IMG/VR virus record: IMGVR_UViG_3300005336_000021
DNA: 64,000 bases
Direction: 5' to 3' (one strand)
Origin: an uncultured virus (IMG/VR IMGVR_UViG_3300005336_000021)
Taxonomy: Duplodnaviria; Heunggongvirae; Uroviricota; Caudoviricetes
A program made the position numbers and the translations under genes. Below the pieces are notes generated by a model, which was not told the origin of the DNA, did no database searches, and saw only the letters and a program-made list of their open reading frames with translations. This document shows positions 3,175-22,010 of this stretch, piece by piece (positions within the stretch are counted from its first letter, which is position 1; each line of letters starts with the position of its first letter).

Positions 3175-3292
3175 TATGACTCTATTATCTGATGATGAAA
3201 AAATTGGGAATTGAGAGAAAAATCTGAGAATACGAACAATGATGATCTGTAAGAGAGAGAATTCTTTAATTGAGAGAAATCACCTGAGAAAT

Positions 3293-3534: not shown

Positions 3535-3550
3535 CGGCATGTAGCCTGCT
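3535..3550 (+). promoter_or_regulatory. sigma54-type promoter 1 (CGGCATG-TAGC-CTGCT)
   Basis: GG-N10-GC spacing; upstream inverted repeat ACCTGTTG-N5-CAACAGGT. Confidence 0.6.
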
Positions 3551-3608
3551 ATATGTTAAGCGTATGTCGGAAATGCAAAAACAAAAACACAGTAACAAAA
3601 ACACTACT

Positions 3609-3788
3609 ATGCACACACAAAACGCAACGCGCTACATAAGCGTAAACAGCACACAGGAGGCGCGCAAAACAGCGCGTTTTTTACGCAAGTTAGGATACAC
3701 ACATACGCGCTACACGCAAGCGCAACGCGGACGCAGCGCGTTTAGCTATTACACACGCGGCGCGGAGGTAGTTGCTATTGTGCATTAG
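3609..3788 (+). CDS. First early gene, small basic protein
   Basis: Follows promoter 1 and an A/C-rich leader; strongly biased codons. Confidence 0.55.
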   Translation: MHTQNATRYISVNSTQEARKTARFLRKLGYTHTRYTQAQRGRSAFSYYTRGAEVVAIVH

Positions 3789-3838
3789 TTTTGCGTTGCG
3801 TGTTGCACGCAAGCGCAATGCACGCAACGCAGCACTAA
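3785..3838 (+). other. Long intergenic hairpin
   Basis: TTAGT..TGCGTTGCGTG / CACGCAACGCA..ACTAA arms. Confidence 0.6.
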
Positions 3839-3878
3839 CGCTGCAAAAACAAAAACGACAAAAACACAAAAACAGTAT

Positions 3879-4337
3879 ATGAAGAAAAACAAAAACAAAA
3901 ACTCGAACCCCGTCACCCCCGCTGTCCTCGACGCCGCTCCTGCCGCTGTCCTCGACCAAGCGCCCCAAGCGCCGCTGTCCGACTCGGAGCAAGCCGCCGC
4001 TGTCGCACAGTTGCAGGAGGAAGTGCCTGCTGCCGCGCCGGAAGCACCCGCACCCGCGCCGGCTACACCCGCAGTAAGCAGCAAGCGCGACGCGTTTGGA
4101 GGGCGTTTGGGAACACGCATGTCCAACATTAACGTCGCCGTAATTAACGCCGGCGCAACCGGCGCAACAATCGCGGAAGTCGCCGCTGCCACTGGGGAAT
4201 CCAAATCCTTAGTAAGCTCGCAGCTCTGCTGGATGGTTGCGCACAACAAAGGCGCTACCCGCACGCAGGAAACGGTAAACGGCAAAAAGCAATTCCGCTA
4301 CTTCGCCGCCAACGCCTTGCTCGCCGTCAACAACTAA
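3879..4337 (+). CDS. Ala/Pro-rich linker + C-terminal winged-HTH protein
   Basis: DAFG...ATIAEVAAATGESKSLVSSQL; resembles C-terminus of 28296-28913. Confidence 0.65.
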   Translation: MKKNKNKNSNPVTPAVLDAAPAAVLDQAPQAPLSDSEQAAAVAQLQEEVPAAAPEAPAPAPATPAVSSKRDAFGGRLGTRMSNINVAVINAGATGATIAEVAAATGESKSLVSSQLCWMVAHNKGATRTQETVNGKKQFRYFAANALLAVNN

Positions 4338-4343
4338 GTTTCT

Positions 4344-4382
4344 CGCCGCCGGCGCTTGCCTAACCCGCAAGCGCCGTAGGCG
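4344..4382 (+). other. GC-rich intergenic hairpin with GC/UA internal loop
   Basis: CGCC-GC-CGGCGCTTGC-loop-GCAAGCGCCG-TA-GGCG. Confidence 0.6.
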
Positions 4383-4407
4383 GTAAACATCAAACCAAAA
4401 CGACAAA

Positions 4408-4683
4408 ATGACAAAAATACTCATATCCTGCAAAAAGTGGCAGCTGGAGGCAGTCCGCCTCGCCCTCGACTGCAACCTCTACAAAACGACGGCGCTGTCC
4501 TACATGAATGTAGGTGAAGACCTCTACCTGCTCGAGGTCGCCAACAAACAAGAATGTGTGCTCTACGCGGAATGCCTCCGCTACATTTCCGGCTCAGATC
4601 CCGTCAACGGCCCTGAGTGGATCGAGCTCGCGGAAATGCTAGAAGACGCTGTGGCAGGGATTTGCAACGATTTCACCGCTTAA
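4408..4683 (+). CDS. Hypothetical early protein
   Basis: AAAACGACAAAATG leader. Confidence 0.65.
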   Translation: MTKILISCKKWQLEAVRLALDCNLYKTTALSYMNVGEDLYLLEVANKQECVLYAECLRYISGSDPVNGPEWIELAEMLEDAVAGICNDFTA

Positions 4684-4709
4684 CCCTCAACCCAAAACAA
4701 AACGACAAA

Positions 4710-4904
4710 ATGACACCTGAAGAAATCATCCAACTGGCGAAGTTGCTGGTGAAATACCACAACTCGATCACCAAAGCCAACGCGAGCATATACGGCGAGA
4801 AGATGGACAAGGCGCTGTGCCAAGACACCTTCACCACGCTGTTCTGCCAGGGCTTTCGCCAATGCGACGAGCTGGGCAAGCTCCAAAAGGAGTTCGTCAA
4901 ATGA
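4710..4904 (+). CDS. Hypothetical early protein
   Basis: AAAACGACAAAATG leader. Confidence 0.65.
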   Translation: MTPEEIIQLAKLLVKYHNSITKANASIYGEKMDKALCQDTFTTLFCQGFRQCDELGKLQKEFVK

Positions 4905-5233
4905 GAGCGACAACCAAACTATTCGCCTACGACAAGGGCACCAAAACCTTCTTCCAGGAGATGTCTACGCTAGAGGGAAATGCCGACGAAAGCGACCCCT
5001 CTCGCAAGACGAAAGCGAGGAGTCTCGTGTTCCACCAGGTGTATCCAGACGCTTGCGACGAGGGAATGACGCTCGTTTCAGCACGCACTGGTGAGGAAGT
5101 TGACTACGTGGTAATTGAACAAGAACGAGCTGTTGACGGTGAACTGGAGTCATGGACTTTGGTGCCGACTAAACAGGCATTGAAGCGGGTGCCTAGAGCA
5201 CGTGGAACGAAGATAATCATCTGGAACGACTAA
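4901..5233 (+). CDS. Hypothetical early protein
   Basis: ATGA overlap; QVYPDACDEG motif. Confidence 0.65.
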   Translation: MRATTKLFAYDKGTKTFFQEMSTLEGNADESDPSRKTKARSLVFHQVYPDACDEGMTLVSARTGEEVDYVVIEQERAVDGELESWTLVPTKQALKRVPRARGTKIIIWND

Positions 5234-5252
5234 ACAACCAATACCTAATAAA

Positions 5253-5289
5253 GAAAGGATATCCCACCCATCGCGAGGTGGGATTTTCT
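5253..5289. terminator. Probable (bidirectional) intrinsic terminator
   Basis: ATCCCACC/GGTGGGAT stem, A-rich before and TTTCT after, between convergent genes. Confidence 0.6.
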
Positions 5290-5449
5290 GTGGATGGTGA
5301 TAAGGTGAAGAACATGGGAAAGACTGCGGGGACGGCGAGCAAGCAGAGATTAGCAGATTCGGGTAGATTAGGTGATTTCGTTATTCGGGTCTTATCGGGG
5401 TTTCTTCTTTGTGTCCAGCTTTATTTTTCACTTTAGCATCTCCATTTGC

Positions 5450-6220
5450 CTATCCTTCTTCTTTTTTCTCCTCTACAATTTCAGCATCTGTCACCTCACC
5501 ACTTGTCAATCTTTTCGGCTCGAGCTCTCGTTTTCTTCGAACCGCGTCCAATATCTTCCTTCTGGTTTCGAAGTCAAGCTCGAGGTCATCTAAATTCAAT
5601 GCCGCATGGTGAATCGTCCCCGTATGTTCCACTTGCATCTTCTCGTTGTATCCCCTGTCGGCATTCTGTGTTCGGTTTGCGAATACTATCGCCCCTGGAT
5701 AACCCTCATCTACCAATCTCATCAATGCCGTCTCAAAATAATCTTTCTTCGCCTCTTGCAATTCCTTCATTGCCATCTTAAAATTCACCTGTTCCTTCCA
5801 ACGTTCAACTGTGTCTCGTGTCACCCCAGCCAAACGTGCAGATTTGCTTGTGTTCCAATTGGTTGACAACATCGCGTGGAGGAATATCTCTTGCCTCAAT
5901 TCATTCGCGAGGTCTCCATTCATCACGTCCGGCACCTCATTTTCATCAGCCTCTAAATACCACTCCACCCGGTTCCACATCTTCCTTGCAGGCTTGCTCA
6001 ATTTCCCTAACATGAATTCATTGAAGTCTGCCACTCTCTGTTTTCTCGCCTCAGCCACTTCATACACCGTCTTCACGTCTTCACGGTTCTTTCTCCACCA
6101 ATTCAAAGTGTCTTGGGGCACGTCTAGCGTGGCAGACAAGGCGCCCAATTTCATGCCTCTCAGGAGACAATCATACAGTGTGAGAAGGAATTTGAGGTTA
6201 ATCTTCTTATTCGCTTTCAT
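5450..6220 (-). CDS. Putative terminase small subunit (double HTH)
   Basis: SARLAGVTRDTVERWK HTH then DYFETALMRLVDEG..AIVFANRT..DRGYNEKMQVEHTG, a TerS-like pattern. Confidence 0.65.
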   Translation of the reverse strand: MKANKKINLKFLLTLYDCLLRGMKLGALSATLDVPQDTLNWWRKNREDVKTVYEVAEARKQRVADFNEFMLGKLSKPARKMWNRVEWYLEADENEVPDVMNGDLANELRQEIFLHAMLSTNWNTSKSARLAGVTRDTVERWKEQVNFKMAMKELQEAKKDYFETALMRLVDEGYPGAIVFANRTQNADRGYNEKMQVEHTGTIHHAALNLDDLELDFETRRKILDAVRRKRELEPKRLTSGEVTDAEIVEEKKEEG

Positions 6221-6375
6221 AAGTCGTTTTTCACAGTAAGATGTCTTTCAGCAGTGTGCAAGTAGTGATTTCATTCGCAAAGCAATCGCATACAATTTGC
6301 ATTGCAATTCGGCATAAATCGTTCACCACGAATCACGGTGAGCAAAATCCCTTAGCATATTTGCAAAATCAAAAT

Positions 6376-6419
6376 CGGCATGAATCTTGCTCATACAAAG
6401 CAAGTTTGCAACGGTGCAA
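6376..6419 (+). promoter_or_regulatory. sigma54-type promoter 2 + TTGCA-N4-TGCAA palindrome
   Basis: CGGCATGAATCTTGCT 6376-6391; TTGCAacggTGCAA 6406-6419. Confidence 0.75.
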
Positions 6420-6448
6420 ACGAAGCAGAGAATAAACAAAACGACAAA

Positions 6449-6655
6449 ATGAAAACAGAACAAAACGACAAACTCAGCAAGGTGCAGGCTTTGCTAGTGC
6501 AGGCCCGCGAGGCGCTTGCCGCAGTGCAATGGAGCACCTCCGTTGTGCTTAACAAGAGCCCCCTCGAACACGACATAGTCTGTTTAGACTTCTATGTCAA
6601 CAATGCCATCGGCCGCTGCGCCACCATCAACCGCACCGTCGGCAAACTCAAATAA
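6449..6655 (+). CDS. Hypothetical early protein
   Basis: AAAACGACAAAATG leader. Confidence 0.6.
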   Translation: MKTEQNDKLSKVQALLVQAREALAAVQWSTSVVLNKSPLEHDIVCLDFYVNNAIGRCATINRTVGKLK

Positions 6656-6660
6656 GACAT

Positions 6661-7038
6661 ATGAAATTATTTGGACATTTCCAAGACTTAGTCAACGCCT
6701 ACGTCGGCCCTTTCAAAAGTGAAAAGGCAGTCCGCGCCCACGCCAAGTGGTGCAAAGAAGTCAGAGGCGACGGTGGTGAACTTATCGAAATCGTCACTTC
6801 AGTGCCTGCTGGTGAATTCACAATTACTCCAGCCGAAGATAAAGCGCCAATCCTTAAGGTTGGTGACAAAGTCCACGTCACGTTTGAATCCGGCCACCGG
6901 ATGAAGGGACGGGTGACTGAGGTTGTTGGTGAACTTTACTTTGCTGAATTTGGCAAAGGTGAATTCAAATTCACATCCAAAATCTACTGGAGCGCGTGGG
7001 GTAACAAAAAGCCGTCATGGAAGGAGAACGCACACTGA
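6661..7038 (+). CDS. Hypothetical early protein
   Basis: Tightly packed ORF. Confidence 0.65.
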   Translation: MKLFGHFQDLVNAYVGPFKSEKAVRAHAKWCKEVRGDGGELIEIVTSVPAGEFTITPAEDKAPILKVGDKVHVTFESGHRMKGRVTEVVGELYFAEFGKGEFKFTSKIYWSAWGNKKPSWKENAH

Positions 7039-7039
7039 T

Positions 7040-7240
7040 ATGGAACTTCAAGACCTAGTCGAGATTGTGCGAGAGTTGGATGCACAGCAATTTGAAGAGC
7101 TGGTGCGTGCAATGTCCGCACAGTGTAGAGAGACAGCCGAGCACATGGAAGGTGACGGCAACGACAGCGGTGCGTGGCGCAAGGCTGCAGACGGGCTTGC
7201 AGACACGGCATATTGGCTGAGCAGGCGCAGTGGAAACTAA
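7040..7240 (+). CDS. Small helical protein (paralog of 9996-10292)
   Basis: QFEELVRA...RRSGN. Confidence 0.65.
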   Translation: MELQDLVEIVRELDAQQFEELVRAMSAQCRETAEHMEGDGNDSGAWRKAADGLADTAYWLSRRSGN

Positions 7241-7248
7241 GGAAATCT

Positions 7249-7482
7249 ATGAAGACATATAGCGCAAAACACGACGAAGACATCGAAATCCCAACATTGC
7301 AAGAAGACGATGACGGCAATGTGAAGGTGACGACGATTGAAGACATGCTCCTGCTAGTGCAGAGCATGGGTTACGAAGACATCGCTGAGTTCGAGGAAGA
7401 CACCACGGTAAAGGTAAATGAATTGATTGGAAAGTGGTGGAACCTGTGCCGGGACGACGTGAACATAATTGATAAGGAATGA
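7249..7482 (+). CDS. Hypothetical acidic protein
   Basis: Packed ORF. Confidence 0.6.
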   Translation: MKTYSAKHDEDIEIPTLQEDDDGNVKVTTIEDMLLLVQSMGYEDIAEFEEDTTVKVNELIGKWWNLCRDDVNIIDKE

Positions 7483-7483
7483 T

Positions 7484-7705
7484 ATGAAAGACTCAAAACT
7501 GTTTGGTAGGATTGGCAAGCGCGACGATGTTGTGCGTGCCAGCCGAGAAGTAAAGAAGGCTGGGGGTGTCGTCACCGAAAACCGAGACGCACAAACCACA
7601 GTCGCGACAAACCCACTTGATGGCGCTACCATATTCAAGGCTCTTCACAAGGGCAACGGTATTTGGCTCATCATGTATTCAACAGACTACTACCCAAAAA
7701 CATGA
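7484..7705 (+). CDS. Hypothetical protein
   Basis: Packed ORF. Confidence 0.6.
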   Translation: MKDSKLFGRIGKRDDVVRASREVKKAGGVVTENRDAQTTVATNPLDGATIFKALHKGNGIWLIMYSTDYYPKT

Positions 7706-7893
7706 AACTGAAACAAGAGGCGAAGAAGTTGAGACGGAAGCACTACATCGGCACCGAATGGACGAAGGAATTCGGCAACGTCCGGCTCTACCGATTTGAC
7801 ACAGTCGAGGAAAGTCAACATTTTCTCGACGTCGTAGGTGGTGCTCCCATCACCACAGGACTGAAAGGTTTTACCGTCGCAGTCAGCAAGTAA
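7702..7893 (+). CDS. Hypothetical protein
   Basis: ATGA overlap. Confidence 0.6.
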   Translation: MKLKQEAKKLRRKHYIGTEWTKEFGNVRLYRFDTVEESQHFLDVVGGAPITTGLKGFTVAVSK

Positions 7894-7898
7894 GCAAT

Positions 7899-8228
7899 AT
7901 GAAAACAATCAAACTTAGCGGCAAACCCTACCAGCACGTCGTCGTAGTTGAAGGACACTCCTACGAACGATTTGGTGACGGGGTCAGGTTCAAACGCACC
8001 TACAAAGGAACTGACTTGGTGAAGGTCCTGACACGAGTCTGCGAGAAACATTTCTACGGACTTGACGACGACTATGAAGAGGGAGTTCCTTGGACGCCCG
8101 AACTTATCTTGAAAGAGATCGAGGAGAGGAATGGTGACGGTTGCGACAGCATCAGCAAACTCACTGTCAACGGTGAGGTGAAAATCGAGATGGAAACGAT
8201 TGACGAAGGAGAAGAGGAAGTCGAATGA
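7899..8228 (+). CDS. Hypothetical protein
   Basis: Packed ORF. Confidence 0.65.
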   Translation: MKTIKLSGKPYQHVVVVEGHSYERFGDGVRFKRTYKGTDLVKVLTRVCEKHFYGLDDDYEEGVPWTPELILKEIEERNGDGCDSISKLTVNGEVKIEMETIDEGEEEVE

Positions 8229-8716
8229 ACAAGAATACCGCAGCACGGCGAGGCTACGAACACACTGGGCACTTCGCCTGGGGGTATGAACGTGAGACGC
8301 TAAAGCCGAAACTTGAGGAATACCGCAAGGCAGGATACAAGGCGATCATCGTCTCAATTCCTCCCGATCCTCTCAGCCGAGGACACCACGGGACATCCTA
8401 CGCCATCATGGTTGAGCCGAGATACGCTGTGGACCAGCGCGTCAAGGCTGCGAAAGCAGAAATCGACCGCTACGAGGACAGCATCTCTCGCATCCTAGAG
8501 CACCATCTTGGAAATGCCCTTAAGGAAGTAGAGAAAACGCGAGAGAAACAGAGAGAGAACGCGAGATGGCTAGCTAATAACGGACATGCCAGCGACGAGG
8601 TCAAAGAAATCCTATCCCAAGCGGAGAAAACCGCCGAAGAGCAGGCTTTCAGCAACCATCTCGAACTAATCGAAAAGGTGAGAGAAATCTTAGAAGAGAT
8701 TGGAGGCAGCATATGA
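8225..8716 (+). CDS. Hypothetical protein
   Basis: ATGA overlap. Confidence 0.65.
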   Translation: MNKNTAARRGYEHTGHFAWGYERETLKPKLEEYRKAGYKAIIVSIPPDPLSRGHHGTSYAIMVEPRYAVDQRVKAAKAEIDRYEDSISRILEHHLGNALKEVEKTREKQRENARWLANNGHASDEVKEILSQAEKTAEEQAFSNHLELIEKVREILEEIGGSI

Positions 8717-9090
8717 GCGACACTGACAAAGAGTTTTGGGACGCAATGGACAGCCGCGACAACGAGATTGCCAAGCAGCAGGCTGAGGTTTATCGCCTCT
8801 GTGGCATTCCTGAAGGAACTGAGGTGATAGACTACGACGGTGAAGATGAACTGCCAAAAACCGGCGTAGTGGTCGACTGCACTCAACACGAAGAGTTCTG
8901 TGTGCTCTACGTTGACGGAGTCGAAGTCGCTCAGTTCGCCGTTAGCTGTCGAGGTAGCTTGTGGATATTTGATGCTGTCGTTTGGGCGACAGGGAAATGC
9001 TACAAGGCGACCGACGAGAAGCCCAGCTTGCGCGAGGTGAAGACGGTAGACACGAACGACAAAGAAATTGGAGCGTGGTTTTTCACATGA
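8713..9090 (+). CDS. Hypothetical protein
   Basis: ATGA overlap, GGAGG upstream. Confidence 0.65.
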   Translation: MSDTDKEFWDAMDSRDNEIAKQQAEVYRLCGIPEGTEVIDYDGEDELPKTGVVVDCTQHEEFCVLYVDGVEVAQFAVSCRGSLWIFDAVVWATGKCYKATDEKPSLREVKTVDTNDKEIGAWFFT

Positions 9091-9179
9091 ATCATCTTAT
9101 CAACATCGACTCCTATCAACTCGCCAAAGCAGGACTAATCCTATTCAGCCTGCTGTGGCTAGCACTCATCATCTTATGA
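9087..9179 (+). CDS. 30-aa membrane peptide
   Basis: ATGA overlaps at both ends; hydrophobic C-terminus. Confidence 0.45.
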   Translation: MNHLINIDSYQLAKAGLILFSLLWLALIIL

Positions 9180-9364
9180 AGACAAACCTACGCAAATTGA
9201 GCACTCGTCAACTGACAAAACTCGCCATTCAAACCGGCGTGCTTCTCCCTTACATGACAGACAAAGAGAAGGTTGATGCCATCGCCAACTGGGCCGCAGG
9301 TTACAGTTTGAATTGGCAAGACTTCACCTCGCGATTCCCTTGGTTGGGAGAACCATTCGCCTAA
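9176..9364 (+). CDS. Hypothetical protein
   Basis: ATGA overlap. Confidence 0.55.
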   Translation: MKTNLRKLSTRQLTKLAIQTGVLLPYMTDKEKVDAIANWAAGYSLNWQDFTSRFPWLGEPFA

Positions 9365-9370
9365 TAGATT

Positions 9371-9556
9371 ATGTATAACATAACAGCACAGCAAATTGAA
9401 GCCGAGAAGAAACTCAAAAAGGAAGGATTCCGATTCTCGAATTGGATCTCCGCGCAAGAAGAAAACCCCGAACTGGGGTGCATGGTTATGAAACGAAAGC
9501 CGAACAAGTTCACGACAGAGTATCGCGAGATTTCGCCAGACGGGAGCGTGAACTGA
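9371..9556 (+). CDS. Hypothetical protein
   Basis: Packed ORF. Confidence 0.6.
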   Translation: MYNITAQQIEAEKKLKKEGFRFSNWISAQEENPELGCMVMKRKPNKFTTEYREISPDGSVN

Positions 9557-9564
9557 CTCAGATT

Positions 9565-9607
9565 CGGCACACAACCTGCTTATTTAATATCAGTTGCAAT
9601 AATGCAA
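9565..9607 (+). promoter_or_regulatory. sigma54-type promoter 3 + palindrome
   Basis: CGGCACACAACCTGCT 9565-9580; TTGCAataaTGCAA 9594-9607. Confidence 0.65.
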
Positions 9608-9617
9608 AACGACAAAC

Positions 9618-9821
9618 ATGAAAATCATCATCAAAGTAGGTAAGGATCACTTCGTCAAGGAGTATGACGTCCTTAAGGATGCGGTGATATTCACTCGTAA
9701 CGAAAGTGAAGCACTCGTGTTCAAATCCGAGGCAAGCGTCAACCACTGGCTCGACCAATATGCCAATTGTGGAACGGGTCTCAACTGGGGACAGGACATC
9801 AAACTGAGGAAGTTCGTATGA
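9618..9821 (+). CDS. Hypothetical protein
   Basis: AAAACGACAAACATG leader. Confidence 0.6.
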   Translation: MKIIIKVGKDHFVKEYDVLKDAVIFTRNESEALVFKSEASVNHWLDQYANCGTGLNWGQDIKLRKFV

Positions 9822-9991
9822 ACGAAGAATACCAAAAGGCTCTCGACCTGCTCGAACAAATCGAGCGCACCGCCAAGCGGGCCGCCGGGCTGACGAGCAA
9901 GGACACACCATCGCACGCACAAAAGATCCGGAATCTCAAACTGCTTGAGATTGTCGACTACTTGGAGAAACTGTGTGAAAAATCTGGCTAA
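9818..9991 (+). CDS. Hypothetical protein
   Basis: ATGA overlap. Confidence 0.55.
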   Translation: MNEEYQKALDLLEQIERTAKRAAGLTSKDTPSHAQKIRNLKLLEIVDYLEKLCEKSG

Positions 9992-9995
9992 GAAT

Positions 9996-10292: not shown

Positions 10293-10294
10293 AT

Positions 10295-10489: not shown

Positions 10490-10497
10490 GGACAAAA

Positions 10498-10797: not shown

Positions 10798-10859
10798 TCG
10801 ATGCCGCCTGCGGCGCTGGTTCCTTTGTCGTTTCCGGCGCCGCAGTAGGCAGGGATTAG
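10794..10859 (+). ncRNA. Structured intergenic RNA, loop antisense to the AAACGACAAA leader motif
   Basis: Stems CTAATC/GATTAG, TGCC/GGCA, CTGCGGCGCTGG/CCGGCGCCGCAG; loop contains TTTGTCGTTT (10824-10833). Confidence 0.45.
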
Positions 10860-10881
10860 CCTGTAACAAACCAAGAAAGAC

Positions 10882-11121: not shown

Positions 11122-11130
11122 TCAACCTGT

Positions 11131-11252
11131 TTTGCAACCGCAGTGCAAAACATTGCGGTTGCAAACACCACCAATGAATTCATTTGCAAAACCGCAATAA
11201 AACACGTTCGGCATGAATCTTGCTCATACAAACTAGCTTTGCAATTATGCAA
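11131..11252 (+). promoter_or_regulatory. sigma54-type promoter 4 with upstream inverted repeat and downstream palindrome
   Basis: TTTGCAACCGCA/TGCGGTTGCAAA 11131-11165; CGGCATGAATCTTGCT 11209-11224; TTGCAattaTGCAA 11239-11252. Confidence 0.75.
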
Positions 11253-11277
11253 GGCGAAAAACAGAAAGAAACGACAA

Positions 11278-11889
11278 ATGAGACGACGAAAATTAACACC
11301 GCAAGAGCAGGCAACTGAAAATGCCAATGCTCAAGCCCGCGCCAAGGAACGCGCCGCAGCAGAGGCCCAGCGCAAACTCGAACGAAGAGAGAGATGCGTG
11401 AAGGAAGTGAGCGAATTGATGGAGAAGGCGAGAATCCTCTCCAACTGGCCCTTGACCGAAGAAGGTGAAGAAGCCTCGAAAATCCAATACGTCATGAGAG
11501 ACATCGGCAGGACCTGGTTCGGTCTGCACGAAGAATTGATTGAACGTCAAGTCGAGTTCATGGCACGCCCCGCCAACTACTTCGAGTGGGCCGAGAAAGA
11601 CATGATAAATGCCTGCAAGCGAGAAATCCTTGACAGCATTCTCTACCTGCTCAGCGAAGAAGGTCAAGAAGGTCAAAACATCCAGCCTAGCTTGAGACTG
11701 GTAGATATCTTGTCCGAGATTGCCGAGAGACTAACAGATGCCCTACTCAACAATGAGGACCGGCCCACATCCACAAACGTGGCACATAACGCCACGATGA
11801 TTGCGAAGAAGGAAGCTCAATCCTACATGCTACGCTGGCACTTGAACGGTTGGCTGCGGCTGCTCAAACCCGTCTACAAAGTCACATGA
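11278..11889 (+). CDS. Hypothetical protein
   Basis: AAACGACAAATG leader. Confidence 0.65.
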   Translation: MRRRKLTPQEQATENANAQARAKERAAAEAQRKLERRERCVKEVSELMEKARILSNWPLTEEGEEASKIQYVMRDIGRTWFGLHEELIERQVEFMARPANYFEWAEKDMINACKREILDSILYLLSEEGQEGQNIQPSLRLVDILSEIAERLTDALLNNEDRPTSTNVAHNATMIAKKEAQSYMLRWHLNGWLRLLKPVYKVT

Positions 11890-12359: not shown

Positions 12360-12382
12360 ATAATACAGAAAGGAAAACGACA

Positions 12383-13144
12383 ATGAAAGTATCTGACGAA
12401 ATCATAGAGAAGCTGACAAAGATTCTCAGGCTGGCGACCGACCGGGCCGCACAGCCTGGTGAGGTTGAGGCCGCGATGGCCAAAGCGCGAGAGATGGCAA
12501 TGCGTCACAGCATCGACCTCGCCTCGGTGAACCTGAACCCGGACACCAAGGTAGAAGGTGGGATCCAAGTTGAGAAGAACTCAACACTGAAGACACGATC
12601 GAAATACAAGCAACCCTACCACTACTGGGTCTTCGCCGTTCTCCAAGAAGTCTTCGAGGTGAAGGTTATCATCTCAGAATGCAGTGACTACAACGGCGGG
12701 AAGGTCATCAGTGCGATTCACATCATCGGCGAAGCATTAGACGTTGCCATTGCTTGCGCGATTTATCCTTTCCTTGAGAAGGTGTTCCCTGCTACGCTGT
12801 CACGCGCCGTATCGGCTGGCACGCTAACATACTGCGCCGCCCATACCAACGGATGCTACCGCGGAATCCATTGGGGCATCATCGAAGCGAACAGGCGAGA
12901 AAGGGAAAAGTTCAAACCCGAAGAGCAGCAGACCCTCGCAATGGTAGTCAGGAAGAAAGAAGAGGTTGTCCAGGCTGCGATGCACGAGATGTTCCCAGCT
13001 ATAAAGAAGCGCGAGGAGTTGGAGGCGAAGAAGAAAGAAGAAGGAAAGGAAAAGAAAGCTCGCAGGGTGCAGATGAGTTGGGAGGCTGTGAGCTACGGGC
13101 ACCAAGAAGGGAAAAAGATCAACCTCAAGCAGGTGAAATCATGA
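12383..13144 (+). CDS. DUF2786 domain protein
   Basis: IIEKLTKILRLA...EVEAAMAKAREMAMRHSID. Confidence 0.75.
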   Translation: MKVSDEIIEKLTKILRLATDRAAQPGEVEAAMAKAREMAMRHSIDLASVNLNPDTKVEGGIQVEKNSTLKTRSKYKQPYHYWVFAVLQEVFEVKVIISECSDYNGGKVISAIHIIGEALDVAIACAIYPFLEKVFPATLSRAVSAGTLTYCAAHTNGCYRGIHWGIIEANRREREKFKPEEQQTLAMVVRKKEEVVQAAMHEMFPAIKKREELEAKKKEEGKEKKARRVQMSWEAVSYGHQEGKKINLKQVKS

Positions 13145-14613: not shown

Positions 14614-14825
14614 AAAGGAATAGGCCCGGGAAGGTCAAGTTATGCAAAACCCCTTCCCGGGCCCAACCCGGAGGATGACAGGTGTGATACCGAGACCCGT
14701 CATCTCCAAGACTATTATCTTCATGTGCTACACTTTGCAATGCGTCCACGTTGCATTATTATATCTGCAAACGAGACGGTGAGCGACACTCATTGACTCT
14801 CAATGCTTCTTACGCTGAATGAAAT

Positions 14826-14867
14826 CGGCATGAATCTTGCTCATAAAAGTCAGTTGCAAACATGCAA
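14826..14867 (+). promoter_or_regulatory. sigma54-type promoter 5 + palindrome
   Basis: CGGCATGAATCTTGCT 14826-14841; TTGCAaacaTGCAA 14854-14867. Confidence 0.75.
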
Positions 14868-14894
14868 AACAAAACGACATAGAAAAGAAAAGAT

Positions 14895-15335: not shown

Positions 15336-15559
15336 ACATCTACACAATCACCGTCCACGCGGTGGGTTACACGACAGTCCAGTTCGACGTCACAGCCCGC
15401 AGCCTAGCAGAAGCTCGCAAGCAAGAATACAATGCGGTTTCCATGTGGCTGAAAGAAAATGACGTTGATGAAGACACACGAGGGTTGGCGTTCGTCAAAA
15501 CAACACGGTGGAAGGGGCCCATCGCCGGAGCCATCCGCAGCGGCCACATCACTCGATGA
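15332..15559 (+). CDS. Hypothetical protein
   Basis: ATGA overlap. Confidence 0.6.
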   Translation: MNIYTITVHAVGYTTVQFDVTARSLAEARKQEYNAVSMWLKENDVDEDTRGLAFVKTTRWKGPIAGAIRSGHITR

Positions 15560-15777
15560 AAACAGGAGAACGAATTTGGAAGCTATACGGTTCCTACGAG
15601 TGCGTAGTGAAGGTGAAGGGGGCTCTTTACCGAACCCATTCAGCCTTCTGTCAAAAAACCCTCGGTTACAAGCTCACCGGATCTTGGAATCCTCGCCGTC
15701 GTGGAATTGAGGATGGTCACCAACTGAGTGCTTGGCTTCAAAGCCTGCCGTGGTTGGAAGGAAAGGAATATAGATGA
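15556..15777 (+). CDS. Hypothetical protein
   Basis: ATGA overlap. Confidence 0.55.
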   Translation: MKTGERIWKLYGSYECVVKVKGALYRTHSAFCQKTLGYKLTGSWNPRRRGIEDGHQLSAWLQSLPWLEGKEYR

Positions 15778-16076
15778 ACCCTTTCTTCAACCCGGACGAC
15801 TGCCCGTTCGAGGTCTTAGGATTTAGGGAAGACCTGATGGACGCGGTGACGGGAGCGATGCTCGGCACGAGAGAGATCACCGAGCCGGATCGCCCGCTCG
15901 GATCAAATGGGATGAAAGAATATATCATCACCGAGACGATTGTGTTGATGAAAGGTCACAAAGAATTTACGTTGAAGGCGAGCCCACAGAGGCCTCGACG
16001 TGTAGTGGGAATGATTCAAATACTCTGCGGAAGAACCAAAAGGAAAAACGATGAAAGAAGAGAAAACATGGACTAA
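15774..16076 (+). CDS. Hypothetical protein
   Basis: ATGA overlap. Confidence 0.6.
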   Translation: MNPFFNPDDCPFEVLGFREDLMDAVTGAMLGTREITEPDRPLGSNGMKEYIITETIVLMKGHKEFTLKASPQRPRRVVGMIQILCGRTKRKNDERRENMD

Positions 16077-16623
16077 GAAGAGATTCGAGGTTCACCACAG
16101 TGGAGACAAGACCACCTGGTATCGGCTTGGTATGCTGGGATATCCCAACCTTCAAGATGCCAAAGTCGCCTACGAAAAAGCCAAGAAGGAATTCAGGTAT
16201 CTCCGGCTTGTCAAAGTAGAGCTGAACTACGAACTCCTCGAAACAGGAACCACAGCTGAGACCGGGCCAGAGAAGAGAGCGAAGATCGTCGCTCAAGCGC
16301 AGGCATTATTCAAAGACAGCCCGTCGGTTCACGTCTACGAAGGATCGTCAATCAGCTTTGGAGAGAAGGTTGAGATGAGTCCCTCCTACGTGATGGTCGA
16401 AGCGCGTCAGGACGTCCTTGCCGGTAAAGCACCAAAACGCATCAACTTCCCCAAAGATGATGCAGGCAAGGATGAATACATCAAACTCCATAAGGAGTGG
16501 GGAACCAAGGCTCACAACCTCGACGACATCCTTGCCGAAGAGATCAAGAAACGACTCACCGCAGCGGGTATCAGCTTCCGACACGGTAGGCAATACGGGT
16601 GGAACGTCTTCCGTCTCGCTTAA
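16051..16623 (+). CDS. Hypothetical protein
   Basis: Packed ORF. Confidence 0.6.
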   Translation: MKEEKTWTKKRFEVHHSGDKTTWYRLGMLGYPNLQDAKVAYEKAKKEFRYLRLVKVELNYELLETGTTAETGPEKRAKIVAQAQALFKDSPSVHVYEGSSISFGEKVEMSPSYVMVEARQDVLAGKAPKRINFPKDDAGKDEYIKLHKEWGTKAHNLDDILAEEIKKRLTAAGISFRHGRQYGWNVFRLA

Positions 16624-16632
16624 AAGAAACAC

Positions 16633-16660
16633 TTGCAAACCTAGTGGCCCACACTATACT
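16633..16660 (+). promoter_or_regulatory. sigma70-type promoter (TTGCAA-N16-TATACT)
   Basis: Directly upstream of the sigma-like gene. Confidence 0.5.
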
Positions 16661-16669
16661 CGATCTGTC

Positions 16670-17206
16670 ATGCAAAACCATATGAACCACATGCCTGCCG
16701 TCAATCCAGAAGAGGAATTTCCCAAGGTGGAAAAGATGCTTTACAACCTTGCTTGGAAATTCACAAACACCTACCCAATCGACTTCGAAGAGGCTAAGCG
16801 AGAGGCTTACTATGCCTTCGTCCGCGCCTGCTACGATTACAACCCTGCCCGAGAAACGAAGTTTTCGTCTTGGGCCTACACCTGGGTATGGTGCCACTTG
16901 AAGACTCTCATTACCAAGCGGACAACGGATCCGCTCACCTTCATCGAAGTGAAGGAGGAGATCTTCGGTGAAGCGGCTCCAGAGCGAAGCCCAACGCTGG
17001 ACATGATTGATGACTTGTCCGAGGACGCGAAGGAGATCATCGGGCTCTTGCTCGAGACACCAGGCGAGCTGATAGGCTCGAAGATGACGCCGCGTCAGTT
17101 CCTTTACAAAGTGAAGGAGATCCTGGTGCGTGGTGGCAAGCCCAAGGAAAGGGTCGACAAGGCCCACAAAGAGATTTGCGAGAAATTCCAAGCAGCCTGG
17201 GCATGA
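16670..17206 (+). CDS. Phage sigma-factor-like protein (region 2)
   Basis: MLYNLAWKF...DFEEAKREAYYAFVRACYDYNP..TKFSSWAYTWV. Confidence 0.7.
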   Translation: MQNHMNHMPAVNPEEEFPKVEKMLYNLAWKFTNTYPIDFEEAKREAYYAFVRACYDYNPARETKFSSWAYTWVWCHLKTLITKRTTDPLTFIEVKEEIFGEAAPERSPTLDMIDDLSEDAKEIIGLLLETPGELIGSKMTPRQFLYKVKEILVRGGKPKERVDKAHKEICEKFQAAWA

Positions 17207-17209
17207 CAA

Positions 17210-18568
17210 TTGAAAGAGACAAAACTTAGACCGTTTCAGATAGAAGGGGTCCAGCAGATCTACCACTTCAAAGGTCGCACTCTGCTGGCGGATGAAATGG
17301 GCCTGGGCAAGACGATCCAGGCACTCTACTGGGTGAAGAAGATCCCTAAGAGGAGACCTGTCGTCATCGTCACGCCGGCGAGTGTGAAATATGTCTGGCA
17401 GAGTGAGGCTGCTCTTCACTTCGGCATGAGAACCGAAGTCCTTGAAGGGCATCACAGAGGTGAGCGAACCCAACTCATCCCTGAAGAGATCATCATCGTC
17501 AACTACGACATTCTTCGCTCTTGGTTGCCGTCCTTGATGAAAGCCAAACCGCAGTGCGTGATCTTGGATGAGTGCCACTACATCAAGAACCCCAGTGCCA
17601 TGCGAACCAAAGCCGCGCTGAAGCTGGCGAAGAAGGCCTCTTCAGTGCTGGGCCTCAGCGGCACTCCCCTCACCAATCGGCCGATCGAATTGTGGACGAT
17701 CCTGAAAGCAATCAAACCTGATTTGTTCCCTTCCAGAGAAGAGTATGCTTGGCGCTATTGCAAGCCGAGATGGACGAGGTGGGGCTGGCTCTACGATGGT
17801 GCAGTAAGGATGCCAGAGCTCCACGCGATCTTGCGTCGATCTTGCATGATTCGACGCTTGAAAAAGGATGTCCTAGCAGAACTGCCCAATAAAACACGAT
17901 GCATGGTCCCCTTCAAGCTCAAGTCTTATGAAGAGTATGACCAAGCCGAGAACGACTTCCTGCTCTGGCTCAGACGAATCAGTCCACAGAGAGCGGTGCG
18001 AGCCAAGCGAGCCGAAGCACTAGCGAAGATGGGCTACCTGATACGACTCGCAGCAAGGTTGAAGCTGGTGTGGACCGAGCGTTGGATTGAAGAGTTCTAT
18101 GAATCCCATCCCGGCGAGAAACTCGTTGCGTTGACGTGCTGGACGTTCGTCATAGATCATTTGAAACAGAAGTTCGGCAATCGCGCCGTCATCATCGACG
18201 GTCGGGTGACTGGAAGGAAACGAGAGGAGACTCGTAGATGCTTTCAATCCAACCGAAGAGTCGATTTGCTTCTCGGCAACTGGCGAGCGGCAGGGGTAGG
18301 TATCACACTCACAGCGGCATCCAACGCGGCGGCACTGGACCTTCCATGGACACCAGGAGACTTGCTTCAGGGAGAAGATCGCATTCATCGCATTGGACAG
18401 AAGAAGAAGGTCATGATCCATTACCTGATGGCCTTGGACACCATCGAGGAGAAGCAAGTCACCATCCTTAAGAAGAAGACGAAGATTCTCGACGCGATCT
18501 TAGACGGCAAGAAATACACCGGTCAGTTGAATATGTTCGACGAGTTGATTGAAAGGATGGCCGCGTGA
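17210..18568 (+). CDS. SNF2-family helicase (SMARCAL1/HARP-like)
   Basis: LLADEMGLGKT, DECH, LSGTP, QGEDRIHRIGQ. Confidence 0.92.
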   Translation: MKETKLRPFQIEGVQQIYHFKGRTLLADEMGLGKTIQALYWVKKIPKRRPVVIVTPASVKYVWQSEAALHFGMRTEVLEGHHRGERTQLIPEEIIIVNYDILRSWLPSLMKAKPQCVILDECHYIKNPSAMRTKAALKLAKKASSVLGLSGTPLTNRPIELWTILKAIKPDLFPSREEYAWRYCKPRWTRWGWLYDGAVRMPELHAILRRSCMIRRLKKDVLAELPNKTRCMVPFKLKSYEEYDQAENDFLLWLRRISPQRAVRAKRAEALAKMGYLIRLAARLKLVWTERWIEEFYESHPGEKLVALTCWTFVIDHLKQKFGNRAVIIDGRVTGRKREETRRCFQSNRRVDLLLGNWRAAGVGITLTAASNAAALDLPWTPGDLLQGEDRIHRIGQKKKVMIHYLMALDTIEEKQVTILKKKTKILDAILDGKKYTGQLNMFDELIERMAA

Positions 18569-18714
18569 AGGATGTCCTCCTAGTTCAAGGTCTTCCAGAA
18601 GGGGTGAAGAGCTCATTCAAAGCCGCTTGCGCCCGGCGAGGCAAGACAATGAAATCTGTCATCTTGAAGCTCATGCAGGACTTTGTAAAGCGTCAGAAAG
18701 ATAATAACTCGTGA
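18565..18714 (+). CDS. Small ribbon-helix-helix (ParG/CopG-like) protein, not in ORF track
   Basis: VKDVLLVQGLPEGVKSSFKAACARRGKTMKSVILKLMQDFV; GTGA overlaps at both ends. Confidence 0.55.
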   Translation: MKDVLLVQGLPEGVKSSFKAACARRGKTMKSVILKLMQDFVKRQKDNNS

Positions 18715-19757
18715 GAATCGTCTCCATCAAACTGGTGAATTTCCAGGCGCATGACGAGCTCGTCATAGAGCTTGATCCTCGCATCACGACGATCAAAGGA
18801 CCGACCGATGTGGGGAAGTCTTCAGTGCTTCGGGCCCTACGGTGGCTGTGCTTGAATGACATCGCAGGTGAAGCTTTCATCAAAGAAGGCGAGAAGAAGA
18901 CAGTCATCAAGCTGACAGTCGAAGAGGAAGGGAACCCAGGTCAGTGGTCTATCAAACGAGTCAGAGGAACGGGCGGAAGCGTCAACACCTACGAGTTAGA
19001 CGGCGAGGAATTCAAAGCCTTTGGTTCCGGCGTGCCGAAGCAGATTCGCGATGTCCTCCATCTCAACGAAATCAATTTCCAAGCACAGCATGACAGTCCC
19101 TTCTGGTTCAACGAGACGGCCGGCGAGGTATCTCGTCGTCTCAATTCAGTCATCGACCTCAGCGTCATCGACGATGTGCTCGGCAACATAGCATCAGAAG
19201 TGAGAAGGTCTCAAGAGAGAATCGACCTCACCAACGAGCGTCTCACCGAAGCGAAAGAAGAGTATGAGAAGCTCAAGCCGATGGAGGGTAGGATTGACGA
19301 CTTTCAATACCTCAAGCTCGATCTCGAGATCCTGACTACTGCTGAGGAACGATTCACCAGGCTCAGCAGTCTCATCACCAGAGTGAGAGAAGTGAAGACC
19401 CGCATCACCGAGTTTGAAGAGAAGCACGAGGAAGGGAAGGAAGTCGTCAGGTTGGGGAGTGATGCTATTGCATTCGACAACTCGGCTGACTCTCTGAGAG
19501 ATCTTATCAAGGACATTCAAGCCTTGCAGAAGGTGAAAGCCCCACCTCCCTTCGATTCTGTCACGACTGCTTACGATGAGTGGCAGACTGCGAATGCGAA
19601 AGTCACCAACCTGCGCTTCATCTATATCCGTCTCGTTGATGCTCACAATGCCGAGTCAAGTTGGAAAGAGAAGCTTCGGCTCGCCGAGAACAAGTTTCAC
19701 AAAGAAGTCAAAGGAAAGGAATGTCCGCTGTGCCATCAGCCACTCCCATCGCAATAG
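18711..19757 (+). CDS. SbcC/Rad50-like ATPase, N-terminal half
   Basis: LVNFQAH, Walker A GPTDVGKS, Q-loop QAQHD, coiled coil, ends at Zn-hook CPLC. Confidence 0.85.
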   Translation: MRIVSIKLVNFQAHDELVIELDPRITTIKGPTDVGKSSVLRALRWLCLNDIAGEAFIKEGEKKTVIKLTVEEEGNPGQWSIKRVRGTGGSVNTYELDGEEFKAFGSGVPKQIRDVLHLNEINFQAQHDSPFWFNETAGEVSRRLNSVIDLSVIDDVLGNIASEVRRSQERIDLTNERLTEAKEEYEKLKPMEGRIDDFQYLKLDLEILTTAEERFTRLSSLITRVREVKTRITEFEEKHEEGKEVVRLGSDAIAFDNSADSLRDLIKDIQALQKVKAPPPFDSVTTAYDEWQTANAKVTNLRFIYIRLVDAHNAESSWKEKLRLAENKFHKEVKGKECPLCHQPLPSQ

Positions 19758-20668
19758 CCATCTCCGACCTTCACCTCTCGCTCTTGCAGCCTGCTTGCCG
19801 GGCCGACAAGGACTGGATGGCAGTGCAAGCGGGCTACCTCGATCAGGTGAAGAAGATGGCCGATGAGCTTCGCGTTCCCGTTTTGTGTGCCGGGGATGTT
19901 TTTGATCGATGGAACGCGCCACCAGAGCTCATCAACTTCGCTCTCAAACACTTGCCGGATGGAATGATCTGTGTGCCAGGCCAGCACGATCTTCCAAATC
20001 ATCGTGTAGATCAGATCCATCGCAGTGGTTATGGTGTGCTCAAGCAAGTGGGCAAGATCGTGGACATCAACGAAGAATATTCTCCGAATAGAGGAACGAA
20101 GTGGGTGTTCATCATTTCTGGGTTTGGCTGGGGGAGGGAGATCAAATCACCACCGAAAGTAGATGAGGTTTACACGGAGTCAAACTTCCCTCAAATAGCT
20201 CTCATCCATCGCTATTGCTGGACCGAATTCCATTCCTACCCCGGCGCACCTGAAGATTCAAATCTCAGCAAGTTTGCAAAGTCCCTCAAAGGCTACGACG
20301 TCGCTATCTTCGGCGACAATCACAAGGGCTTCCTGAGCGAGTTGAAGTCAGGAACGACTGTGCTCAATGTCGGCGGATTCATCCGTCGCAAGTCTGACGA
20401 AGTCGGTTACAATCCCAGCGTGGGCATCATCTATTCAGACGGCACAGTGAAGCGTCGCAAGCTAGACACGTCGGCCGATGTCTTCCATGAAGAGATTGCC
20501 GGGCGTGAAGAAGTCCCGTTGAACATGAAAGAGTTTATCGACGGGCTAGAGGGACTCGGCGAGCACGGGCTGAACTTCAGAGAGGCCGTTGAAAACCATC
20601 TGCGAGATGAAGAACTGACACCTGCTGTGAAGCAGATCATACGATCATGCCTAGAGCAACCAAAGTAA
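19721..20668 (+). CDS. SbcD/Mre11-like metallophosphoesterase
   Basis: SDLH, AGDVFD, PGQHD, GDNH. Confidence 0.85.
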   Translation: MSAVPSATPIAIAISDLHLSLLQPACRADKDWMAVQAGYLDQVKKMADELRVPVLCAGDVFDRWNAPPELINFALKHLPDGMICVPGQHDLPNHRVDQIHRSGYGVLKQVGKIVDINEEYSPNRGTKWVFIISGFGWGREIKSPPKVDEVYTESNFPQIALIHRYCWTEFHSYPGAPEDSNLSKFAKSLKGYDVAIFGDNHKGFLSELKSGTTVLNVGGFIRRKSDEVGYNPSVGIIYSDGTVKRRKLDTSADVFHEEIAGREEVPLNMKEFIDGLEGLGEHGLNFREAVENHLRDEELTPAVKQIIRSCLEQPK

Positions 20669-20868
20669 TACCGGCGGGATATGTTTGCGTCACCAACAAT
20701 GGTGAAACCTACATCCAACCCGATGATTTCGTGGACAAAGGGAAGAGGATCTTCTACATCGAGTGTGAAGACCTCACCGTCCAAGTCAACAGCAACCTGG
20801 ACGCGGCGATGAGAGTGTGGGTGTTGGTGGGTCAGCCCAAAGTCTTCTCAGTTGGAACTGTGGGATGA
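20647..20868 (+). CDS. Hypothetical protein
   Basis: Packed ORF. Confidence 0.45.
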   Translation: MPRATKVIPAGYVCVTNNGETYIQPDDFVDKGKRIFYIECEDLTVQVNSNLDAAMRVWVLVGQPKVFSVGTVG

Positions 20869-21071
20869 GGAACTGGTGTCAACATATTCAGTGGGGTTCA
20901 CCGATGGACCAGCCGAAGGGGGGTTGGGTTATCTTCTTAGAGCAAACCATCCCACAAGTAATTGTCATTCCCAGGACATGGAAAGTCTGCCCGATCTGCC
21001 AAGCCGAGCGCCCAACCAAAGAGAATGTCAGGGCAGCAAGACTGAGACACAGAATGGACAATGACGGATGA
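20865..21071 (+). CDS. Small Zn-binding protein
   Basis: WCQHI...WKVCPICQAERP. Confidence 0.55.
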   Translation: MRNWCQHIQWGSPMDQPKGGWVIFLEQTIPQVIVIPRTWKVCPICQAERPTKENVRAARLRHRMDNDG

Positions 21072-21328
21072 AACCTACTCATTGTGCCACCCTCGGAAAC
21101 AAGCAAGACGTGACTGCTTGGCAGTTCAGTCACACGGCTCCCATCCCTGTCTGGGTGGCGAGGAAGTTTCACCAAGTCTCAGATAAGAAGGGATGGACTG
21201 CGATAGATCTGTATGGGAAGGTGATAGAGGCGAATGAAGGCGATTGGGTGGTGGCACCCAACGTGGGAACTTGCTTCGTCCTCACCGACAAAGAATTCAA
21301 CGAGTGTTTCAAACCTCTAATACCATGA
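21068..21328 (+). CDS. Hypothetical protein (GDW-motif phage family)
   Basis: ANEGDWVV...EFNECF. Confidence 0.6.
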   Translation: MKPTHCATLGNKQDVTAWQFSHTAPIPVWVARKFHQVSDKKGWTAIDLYGKVIEANEGDWVVAPNVGTCFVLTDKEFNECFKPLIP

Positions 21329-21474
21329 ATCCCATCTTCGCCGGCATTCTCATCGTAGGAATCTGCCTCATAGGCATCCTCTGCTGTCATGTTATGATTG
21401 GATTGGCGAAGCTGGAGATGAGAATCGTCAAACTTGAAGCAATGATAGAGCATATCACAGGAAAGAAACCATGA
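21325..21474 (+). CDS. Small membrane protein
   Basis: One TM segment; ATGA overlap. Confidence 0.45.
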   Translation: MNPIFAGILIVGICLIGILCCHVMIGLAKLEMRIVKLEAMIEHITGKKP

Positions 21475-21616
21475 AGCAGTTGATAGAATTCATAGAATCC
21501 CCCGCAGGGATCTTTGTGATAGGCACGACCCTCATCGTGATAGGCACGATCGTTGATTTGATGAAACTGAAGAAAAAGAAATGACCCCTGGGAACTGGGA
21601 TCTACCACAAGGACGT

Positions 21617-21865
21617 ATGAGCGAAGTGATAAATGAAGAAACATATCGGCGTCTCAAGCGAGATGTAGAGAACGCGAAGACTGAAGCCGATCGAGCGAAG
21701 GGTGCTCTCACGACTATCACAGCCCAGCTGGAAGAGGAATTCGGAGTCGACAATCTGAAGGAGGCCAAGGAAGCTCTCGCCGAGCTAGAAGCCAAGCGCG
21801 ACAAAGCCAAAGAGAAGTTCGACACCGCACTGAAAGACTATCAGAAGAAATGGTCACCTGAATAG
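21617..21865 (+). CDS. Small coiled-coil protein (candidate Rad50 middle segment)
   Basis: Heptad-rich, EEFGVDNLKEA turn. Confidence 0.65.
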   Translation: MSEVINEETYRRLKRDVENAKTEADRAKGALTTITAQLEEEFGVDNLKEAKEALAELEAKRDKAKEKFDTALKDYQKKWSPE

Positions 21866-21967
21866 TCGCAAAGCGGCCGCGTTGCAAGGACAATGCGGTT
21901 TGCAAGTTTAAGAATCAATTCGTTCACCACTACATTGCGGATCAACACTTTACGCTCTCTCTGAGTT

Positions 21968-22010
21968 CGGCATGAGTCTTGCTCATATAAGTCCAGTTGC
22001 ATGTTTGCAA
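21968..22010 (+). promoter_or_regulatory. sigma54-type promoter 6 + palindrome
   Basis: CGGCATGAGTCTTGCT 21968-21983; TTGCAtgttTGCAA 21997-22010. Confidence 0.75.

Follow-up and report, generated by a model that had tools for sequence, protein, structure and literature searches.

Genome layout and six sigma-54-type elements

We analyzed a stretch of 64,000 nucleotides (the window) from an uncultured tailed phage (IMG/VR record IMGVR_UViG_3300005336_000021; Caudoviricetes), the source genome of which is 75,148 bp long and estimated to be 98% complete. Our subject is a set of six intergenic elements that resemble promoters of the sigma factor sigma-54 (RpoN), together with the repeated boxes flanking them. 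The phage has a long tape-measure gene and encodes a DnaN-like sliding clamp and a clamp loader. Small unknown genes open a rightward arm at 3.9 kb and are followed by replication genes, and virion genes run leftward. No near match to the genome was found among 50,697 annotated phages, and the matches to its polymerase all have less than 30% identity. Protein annotation covered 76, 27 and 30 selected proteins of the ~130 called. The six elements are as follows.

3535..3550, + strand: sigma-54-type -24/-12 element 1; predicted start ~3561-3562; without a full downstream palindrome
6376..6391, + strand: sigma-54-type element 2; predicted start 6402
9565..9580, + strand: sigma-54-type element 3, in a 61-bp gap without upstream boxes; predicted start 9591-9592
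11209..11224, + strand: sigma-54-type element 4; predicted start 11235
14826..14841, + strand: sigma-54-type element 5, ahead of the unit with the phage sigma gene; predicted start 14852
21968..21983, + strand: sigma-54-type element 6, at the start of the long replication arm; predicted start 21994-21995

A first-pass annotation had reported these six 16-mers as intergenic, + strand elements with exact GG-N10-GC spacing that face the genes downstream. Position, strand and spacing held at all six, as did the placement in gaps, the latter after manual removal of seven called open reading frames (ORFs), including an overlapping ORF starting at 6380. The likeness to RpoN sites that it had noted also exceeds chance: the 75,148-bp genome contains seven matches to the pattern YGGCAYR-N4-YTGCW, whereas 200 third-order Markov simulations gave a mean of 0.2 (maximum 2). 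When inner spacers of 0-9 were scanned, enrichment appeared at N4 only (7), with one match each at N0 and N2 and none at the other seven. The seventh match lies at 33079 within the sliding-clamp gene, and the clamp genes of three distant relatives (G522-G524) yielded no listed match to the pattern. A matrix built from the six sites scored them at 21.8-34.4 bits, and no further site in the genome exceeded 12.5 bits.

Among 19 distinct sites, a pyrimidine-purine step falls at +1 in 12 and at +2 in the other 7, and the base before GG is C rather than T in every case. A scan for sigma-70-type sequences found no repeated alternative promoter at the six promoter gaps. Reading the downstream element as a Bacteroidota-type -7 element fits only one of the six sites and was set aside. 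Considered as promoters alone, the six sites are very likely working sigma-54 promoters. We call their genes early on the strength of gene content and position.

Boxes flanking the promoters

The promoters are surrounded by TTGCA and TGCAA half-sites, which are arranged as follows together with a site resembling those bound by IHF.

3431..3480, unstranded: promoter 1 upstream array (-130 to -81) of TGCA-N7-TGCA repeats, with a perfect TTGCA-N4-TGCAA at 3467-3480; candidate enhancer
6286..6366, unstranded: promoter 2 upstream half-site cluster (~-115 to -95), plus an N4 box with one mismatch at 6353-6366
6406..6419, unstranded: promoter 2 downstream TTGCA-N4-TGCAA palindrome (+5)
9594..9607, unstranded: promoter 3 downstream palindrome (+4), the sole box there
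11132..11197, unstranded: promoter 4 upstream N7 array (-103 to -71), plus an N4 box with one mismatch at 11184-11197
11239..11252, unstranded: promoter 4 downstream palindrome (+5); its flanks would give an 8-bp stem as RNA
14735..14770, unstranded: promoter 5 upstream half-site cluster (-117 to -82)
14854..14867, unstranded: promoter 5 downstream palindrome (+3)
21882..21905, unstranded: promoter 6 upstream half-site cluster (-112 to -89)
21940..21952, + strand: IHF-like site with a TCAA-N4-TTA core at -52 of promoter 6, a position shared with distant relatives
21997..22010, unstranded: promoter 6 downstream palindrome (+4)

The 936 bp around the six promoters contain 43 half-sites (45.9/kb, a 27-fold enrichment), compared with 1.7/kb elsewhere in the genome and 2.9/kb in 22 other intergenic gaps. 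Seven perfect TTGCA-N4-TGCAA palindromes occur in the genome where 0.04 would be expected; promoters 2-6 each have one starting at +3 to +5, promoter 1 has one at -94, and a late gene contains the seventh. Five of the six promoters carry a palindrome spanning +3 to +19. One-mismatch copies also occur at about -50 (-51 to -38) of promoters 2 and 4. Upstream arrays of half-sites at -75 to -130, mostly of the form TGCA-N7-TGCA, are present at five of the six promoters, and this N7 form was found 12 times in 19 upstream regions versus 0.04 in shuffles. TTGCA-N3-TGCAA, the spacing of LuxO- and OrpR-type sites, is absent from the phage genome, compared with the seven copies at N4. A TCAA-N4-TTA core, which we label IHF-like, recurs at -52/-51 in 8 of 28 family sites versus 0.5 in shuffles.

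Conservation in close and distant relatives

The first-pass annotation had suggested looking for the motifs in related phages, and this search found that two close relatives keep both the promoters and the box layout, while three distant ones keep the promoter cassettes with other boxes. Scans of viral and metagenome contigs for the compound motif returned 24 and 28 stretches. Those with multiple copies came from the source phage itself and two relatives, each represented by several contigs, with roughly 70-90% nucleotide identity to the source in aligned pieces. Single matches elsewhere had no protein match to the source genome where tested. Across the 22 distinct sites of these three phages, the downstream palindrome is perfect in 16, has one mismatch in 2 and is missing from 4, namely the first promoter of each phage and the single leftward site, which belongs to one close relative. 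Between GGCA and TGC, 12 different eight-base sequences occur, and other inner spacers gave no matches in the close relatives. Both close relatives conserve the upstream array of promoter 1, and additional promoter copies stand at other gene boundaries.

We also ran the strict pattern on 80 helicase and 80 portal loci, where it revealed no promoter cluster outside the close clade. The distant cassettes were found with a looser pattern only. G522, G523 and G524 share 62, 54 and 53 of 130 proteins with the source phage, respectively, including the sigma factor, clamp and loader; the winged-helix, pilin and kinase genes described below were not found in them. Intergenic GG-N10-GC cassettes precede small genes three times in G522, twice in G523 and three times in G524. 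With one extra base in the spacer, the looser pattern gave three matches in G523 and four in G524, similar to the canonical spacing, so the case in these two genomes rests on repetition, placement and flanks rather than on counts. At -92 to -126 they carry boxes unrelated to the TGCA boxes: TGTATA/TATACA in G522 and GAGACA/TGTCT in G523 and G524. A more remote genome, G525, which shares 28 of 130 proteins and has no sigma homolog, contains no GG-N10-GC match.

Sites for host activators would be expected to look like this, with the scaffold fixed and the boxes of the enhancer zone exchangeable, and this is the strongest support for a host activator acting on these promoters. The flanking boxes, the fixed position of the IHF-like core and conservation in relatives also strengthen the sigma-54 promoter reading itself.

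Two other arrangements were noted. Back-to-back sites surround one shared block of boxes at L080:8589 (-)/8726 (+) and at G522:C1:4102 (-)/4279 (+), apparently made by inverted duplication. A portal relative has six matches to the RpoN pattern within a 21-bp tandem repeat (L385:5201-5450), which is probably unrelated.

A phage sigma factor and a second promoter motif

The phage encodes a short sigma factor of its own, and a second motif, AGATAATA, is distributed as listed here.

16691..17206, + strand: phage sigma-70-like factor of 171 aa, matching Pfam region 2 only; candidate reader of AGATAATA
3183..3190, - strand: AGATAATA at the head of the leftward virion arm; candidate phage-sigma promoter
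14720, - strand: AGATAATA, other copy
12358, 18699, 22053, 25202, 25861, 28225, 31684, 40807 and 46162, + strand: AGATAATA, other copies

The 11 copies compare with 0.65 expected, are always in the sense of the adjacent gene and head replication and late genes. Homologs of the sigma factor in G522-G524 are 48-57% identical, and these three genomes contain 13-16 copies of the motif, compared with one in G525, which lacks the sigma gene. In the source phage the sigma gene sits in the unit of promoter 5. Together with the AGATAATA class, this placement suggests a likely order of sigma-54 followed by phage sigma, which supports the designation early. A sigma-70-like match at 16633-16660, directly before the sigma gene, could give a second entry. 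We considered TTGCAA as a -35 element of AGATAATA and dropped it because the spacing varies between relatives.

The missing activator and the probable host

The first-pass annotation had seen no bacterial enhancer-binding protein in the window, and we likewise found no GAFTGA-type motif in any ORF of at least 40 aa. The sole match to Sigma54_activat covers profile positions 9-61 of 168 and corresponds to the Walker A part of the clamp loader; three relatives show the same partial match and nothing more. Neither activator nor sigma-54 genes were found in these four phage genomes, which are 90-100% complete.

The host is probably a member of the Verrucomicrobiota, for which the relatives and leader of the phage prepilin and the relatives of its kinase are suggestive, not proof. 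Relatives of the phage prepilin belong to Verrucomicrobiota in 6 of 14 cases and to Omnitrophota in 5, and two host pilin leaders resemble the leader of the phage gene. Of the 80 kinase relatives kept, 29 are from Verrucomicrobiota as counted from titles, and the best matches are from Blastocatellia at 34% identity. Portal relatives in GTDB were limited to three contigs in three unrelated bins and gave no host signal. RpoN is present in five of five candidate host genomes, and candidate hosts also encode several activators. In 151 Verrucomicrobiota genomes, the RpoN pattern matched 514 times compared with 179 in the reversed control, and variants with C before GG are common among Verrucomicrobiota matches.

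We also asked whether the boxes have counterparts in bacteria. Two Verrucomicrobiota genomes have TTGCA-N3-TGCAA ahead of a sigma-54 site, one of which adjoins a GAFTGA activator gene. In 201 genomes, a host half-site lies 11-16 nt downstream in 23 matches versus 8 at 24-29 nt (p 0.011); reversed controls gave 11 versus 24, and the signal is weak. A GTDB-wide search for the compound motif returned 40 scattered matches, close to the roughly 26 estimated for chance; 18 of the 40 have T before GG, and several resemble real promoters. Separately, bacterial sigma-54-type promoters at L040, L056, L037 and L049 carry TTGCA-N4-TGCAA just past the predicted start; the genes behind them, which we take to be glnK (twice), nirB and a flgM-like gene, were named by recognition of the ORFs. 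The idea that the boxes were copied from a host pilin enhancer was not supported: among 14 loci, three close host pilin genes have sigma-54-type sites and no TGCA arrays.

One phage gene also stands out as a possible binder of the boxes.

3879..4337, + strand: winged-helix protein, encoded by the first long gene after promoter 1; candidate phage regulator

Its fold is supported by a best Z of 9.7 and Atlas TM values of 0.65-0.75, and it has 28 relatives. Reading it as a Z-alpha domain was rejected, as the Z-alpha rows tie with many other winged helices and the signature residues are missing. It is a candidate as the main alternative binder of the TGCA boxes.

Proposed mechanism and alternatives

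We propose that host RNA polymerase with RpoN would start early transcription at the six promoters, and that a host enhancer-binding protein would switch them on through the flanking TTGCA/TGCAA boxes. On the upstream arrays, this activator would contact polymerase across a bend. Probably the same factor would occupy the +3 to +19 palindrome, serving as a compact enhancer where there is no upstream room, or as a limiter, and the palindrome may also fold as a 5' RNA hairpin. The fifth unit would then make the phage sigma factor, which would read the AGATAATA promoters of replication and virion genes. We infer the dependence on host RpoN and a host activator from sequence, and give the full model, in which a host activator occupies the boxes, a probability of roughly 60%. 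As a whole, the interpretation is mostly supported but unproven.

Several results weigh against this model. Promoter 3 and its counterparts have no upstream boxes, and the IHF-like core is exact at only one of the six promoters of the source genome. The invariance of GGCA and TGC is partly built into the pattern used for searching, and sites in the relatives do not count as independent. The RpoN pattern did not exceed its control in four Limisphaerales/Verrucomicrobiia genomes. The upstream N7 layout was found in 15 of 401 Verrucomicrobiota genomes versus 9 control matches, the downstream N4 layout in 3 of 401 versus none in the control, and the half-site pattern in 1 of 121 in the order of G001. 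The N4 and N7 spacings of the phage are not a general host layout. Furthermore, the winged-helix gene was not found in G522-G524 and occurs only in the clade with TGCA boxes, and a protein at +3 to +19 would overlap polymerase and could equally repress.

Alternatively, the boxes could be operators at which a phage repressor turns off early transcription. The winged-helix protein would be the likeliest such repressor, and activation would come from a host activator working without an enhancer. The protein has a suitable fold, follows promoter 1 and is confined to the clade with the boxes, although this co-occurrence in one clade amounts to a single observation. Boxes at -51 to -38 and +3 to +19 bracket the polymerase site, and the layout is rare in candidate host genomes. 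However, the usual enhancer zone, at -75 to -130, holds most of the half-sites, and in distant relatives that lack the winged-helix gene it is occupied by other boxes. Promoter 1, which drives the gene, also lacks the downstream palindrome. On balance we regard a repressor as unlikely.

A second alternative alters one part of the proposed mechanism and leaves the promoter reading intact: the +3 to +19 palindrome would act only as a 5'-terminal RNA hairpin protecting early transcripts, with the upstream arrays as the only DNA sites. At most sites the predicted transcripts start 1-4 nt before the stem. The flanks of 15 distinct sites add 23 pairs versus 14.3 when permuted (p 0.004; the sites are not independent), and these extensions include G-U pairs and a matched T/A insertion. 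The same palindrome at bacterial promoters with different likely activators, their gene names given by recognition, also fits a role in RNA. In contrast, compensatory changes are missing from the TTGCA/TGCAA core in 18 sites, and both of its variants disrupt a pair. Seven of the 18 stems reach only -3.3 to -3.5 kcal/mol, and the palindrome also occurs in untranscribed DNA at 3467, 6353 and 11184. An exclusive RNA role is improbable, a shade more so than the repressor. Since the flanks covary and the core never does, a double role in DNA and RNA is plausible.

It is very doubtful that the sites instead hold sigma-54 polymerase in non-firing closed complexes, acting on the timing or strength of other promoters as decoys or roadblocks. 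The phage encodes no activator, and in G523 and G524 AGATAATA lies directly upstream of the -24 element with a Shine-Dalgarno-like run before the start codon, such that bound polymerase could block the AGATAATA promoter. Yet the six sites face genes at one spacing and have start-type dinucleotides, enhancer-zone boxes and the IHF-like core, and no repeated sigma-70-type promoter is present at the gaps to serve in their place. Finally, that the repeat is read by the phage sigma or another phage protein and resembles RpoN sites by chance is scarcely credible: a sigma-70-like protein is encoded and C replaces T before GG in 19 of 19 sites, but the sigma gene lies downstream of the fifth site, the separate motif AGATAATA tracks that gene (11-16 copies with it, 1 without it in G525), and C-GG variants are common in Verrucomicrobiota RpoN-pattern matches.

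Comparison with known systems

Pseudomonas phage YuA reportedly has three late sigma-54 promoters that serve virion and lysis genes. Its development is described as strictly sigma-54 dependent (Ceyssens et al. 2008, as cited in PMC5053324), and a sigma-54-like start has been mapped by ONT-cappable-seq (bioRxiv 10.1101/2023.10.13.562163). Like the source phage, YuA is tailed and lacks its own RNA polymerase, and it uses host sigma-54, as is predicted for the source phage. YuA also has sigma-70 promoters, whereas in the source phage sigma-54-type sites with boxes head early-type genes and a sigma gene, and a different motif is found at late genes. The leftward virion arm of the source phage, where YuA-type placement would put a sigma-54 promoter, is not headed by any strict match. 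The first-pass annotation had not known sigma-54 dependence as a described phage strategy. YuA contradicts this in general; the narrower part stands, in that we found no paper on sigma-54 promoters as the entry to an early program in a searched literature that lacks most subscription papers.

LuxO sites of qrr genes have the form TTGCA-W3-TGCAA and lie at -89 to -120 (PMC11443567). The phage resembles this system in combining a -24/-12 element, half-sites at about -90 to -120 and, at promoter 6, an IHF-like site between them. It differs in that LuxO boxes have a 3-nt spacer, whereas the phage spacers are 4 and 7, an extra box lies past the start and no activator gene is nearby. We found no literature on N4 or N7 boxes under those spellings. 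Downstream enhancers of FleQ (reported by Jyot et al. 2002) are a precedent for activator sites past the RpoN site; their sequence differs, and the phage box begins at +3 to +6.

The promoters of PeSL elements are of the sigma-70 type. PeSL elements of T4-like phages are units of a terminator plus an early promoter (PMC4122927). They resemble the phage cassettes in being repeated among small, variable early genes and in being gained or lost between relatives; they differ in that the phage promoter is of the sigma-54 type and its stem follows the start. No terminator-like stem-loop directly upstream of the -24/-12 elements was called as a repeated unit. In T4 late transcription, gp55 reads TATAAATA promoters, which are -10-only, with activation by the clamp. 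The source phage is similar in having a gene for a short sigma factor, a promoter-like 8-nt AT-rich motif without an evident -35, and a phage clamp and loader, and it differs in that its clamp is DnaN-like.

Because sigma-54 polymerase needs an ATP-driven activator to open promoters (PMC8528422), a phage that has its first genes under such promoters leaves it to a host signaling protein whether infection starts. In these phages the onset of infection likely depends on a host activator under signal control, which, if true, would amount to sensing of host state without a phage-made sensor. Use of sigma-54 by phages is already known; its use as an entry point, with a conserved scaffold and boxes swapped across a family, would be new. 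Extending this, a family of 67-77 kb phages may gate the start of infection on host sigma-54 activators and swap boxes between genera, with the downstream box as a portable enhancer for 60-bp gaps. We advance this tentatively, as slightly short of an even chance. If true, each genus would fire only when the host is in the state that switches on the activator it has chosen. The family offers a natural comparison of one promoter scaffold with three enhancer types and, provided the host is correctly assigned, candidate parts for gene regulation in Verrucomicrobiota.

Additional features of the genome

The early genes have no Shine-Dalgarno sequence and share a AAACGACAAA-ATG leader (4400-4410, 4700-4712, 6440-6451, 11268-11280 and 12373-12385). 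Host pilin genes in L066 and L070 have leaders of a similar kind. An intergenic hairpin at 10803-10860 (+) is long and has a 14-nt loop complementary to the AAACGACAAA leader. Both close relatives retain it, with stem changes that come in pairs and a loop that barely differs; it is a candidate small RNA or processing site. The leader of the first unit (3564-3878, +) contains many alternating purine-pyrimidine runs and an ORF of 59-74 aa that is ~52% identical in one close relative and missing in the other.

In the leftward arm, a type IV prepilin-like gene (52993-53361, -) lies among tail genes. A hybrid receiver-histidine kinase (56071-57174, -) is encoded in the late arm, was not found in the three distant relatives and could feed a host response regulator. 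In the rightward arm, a family A DNA polymerase (37334-39535, +) is split by an intein with an HNH domain. Genes for QueD, QueE, FolE, a tRNA-guanine-transglycosylase-like protein, QueF and QueC occupy 29021-31741 and 46190-47235 (+), a set that likely directs 7-deazaguanine DNA modification.

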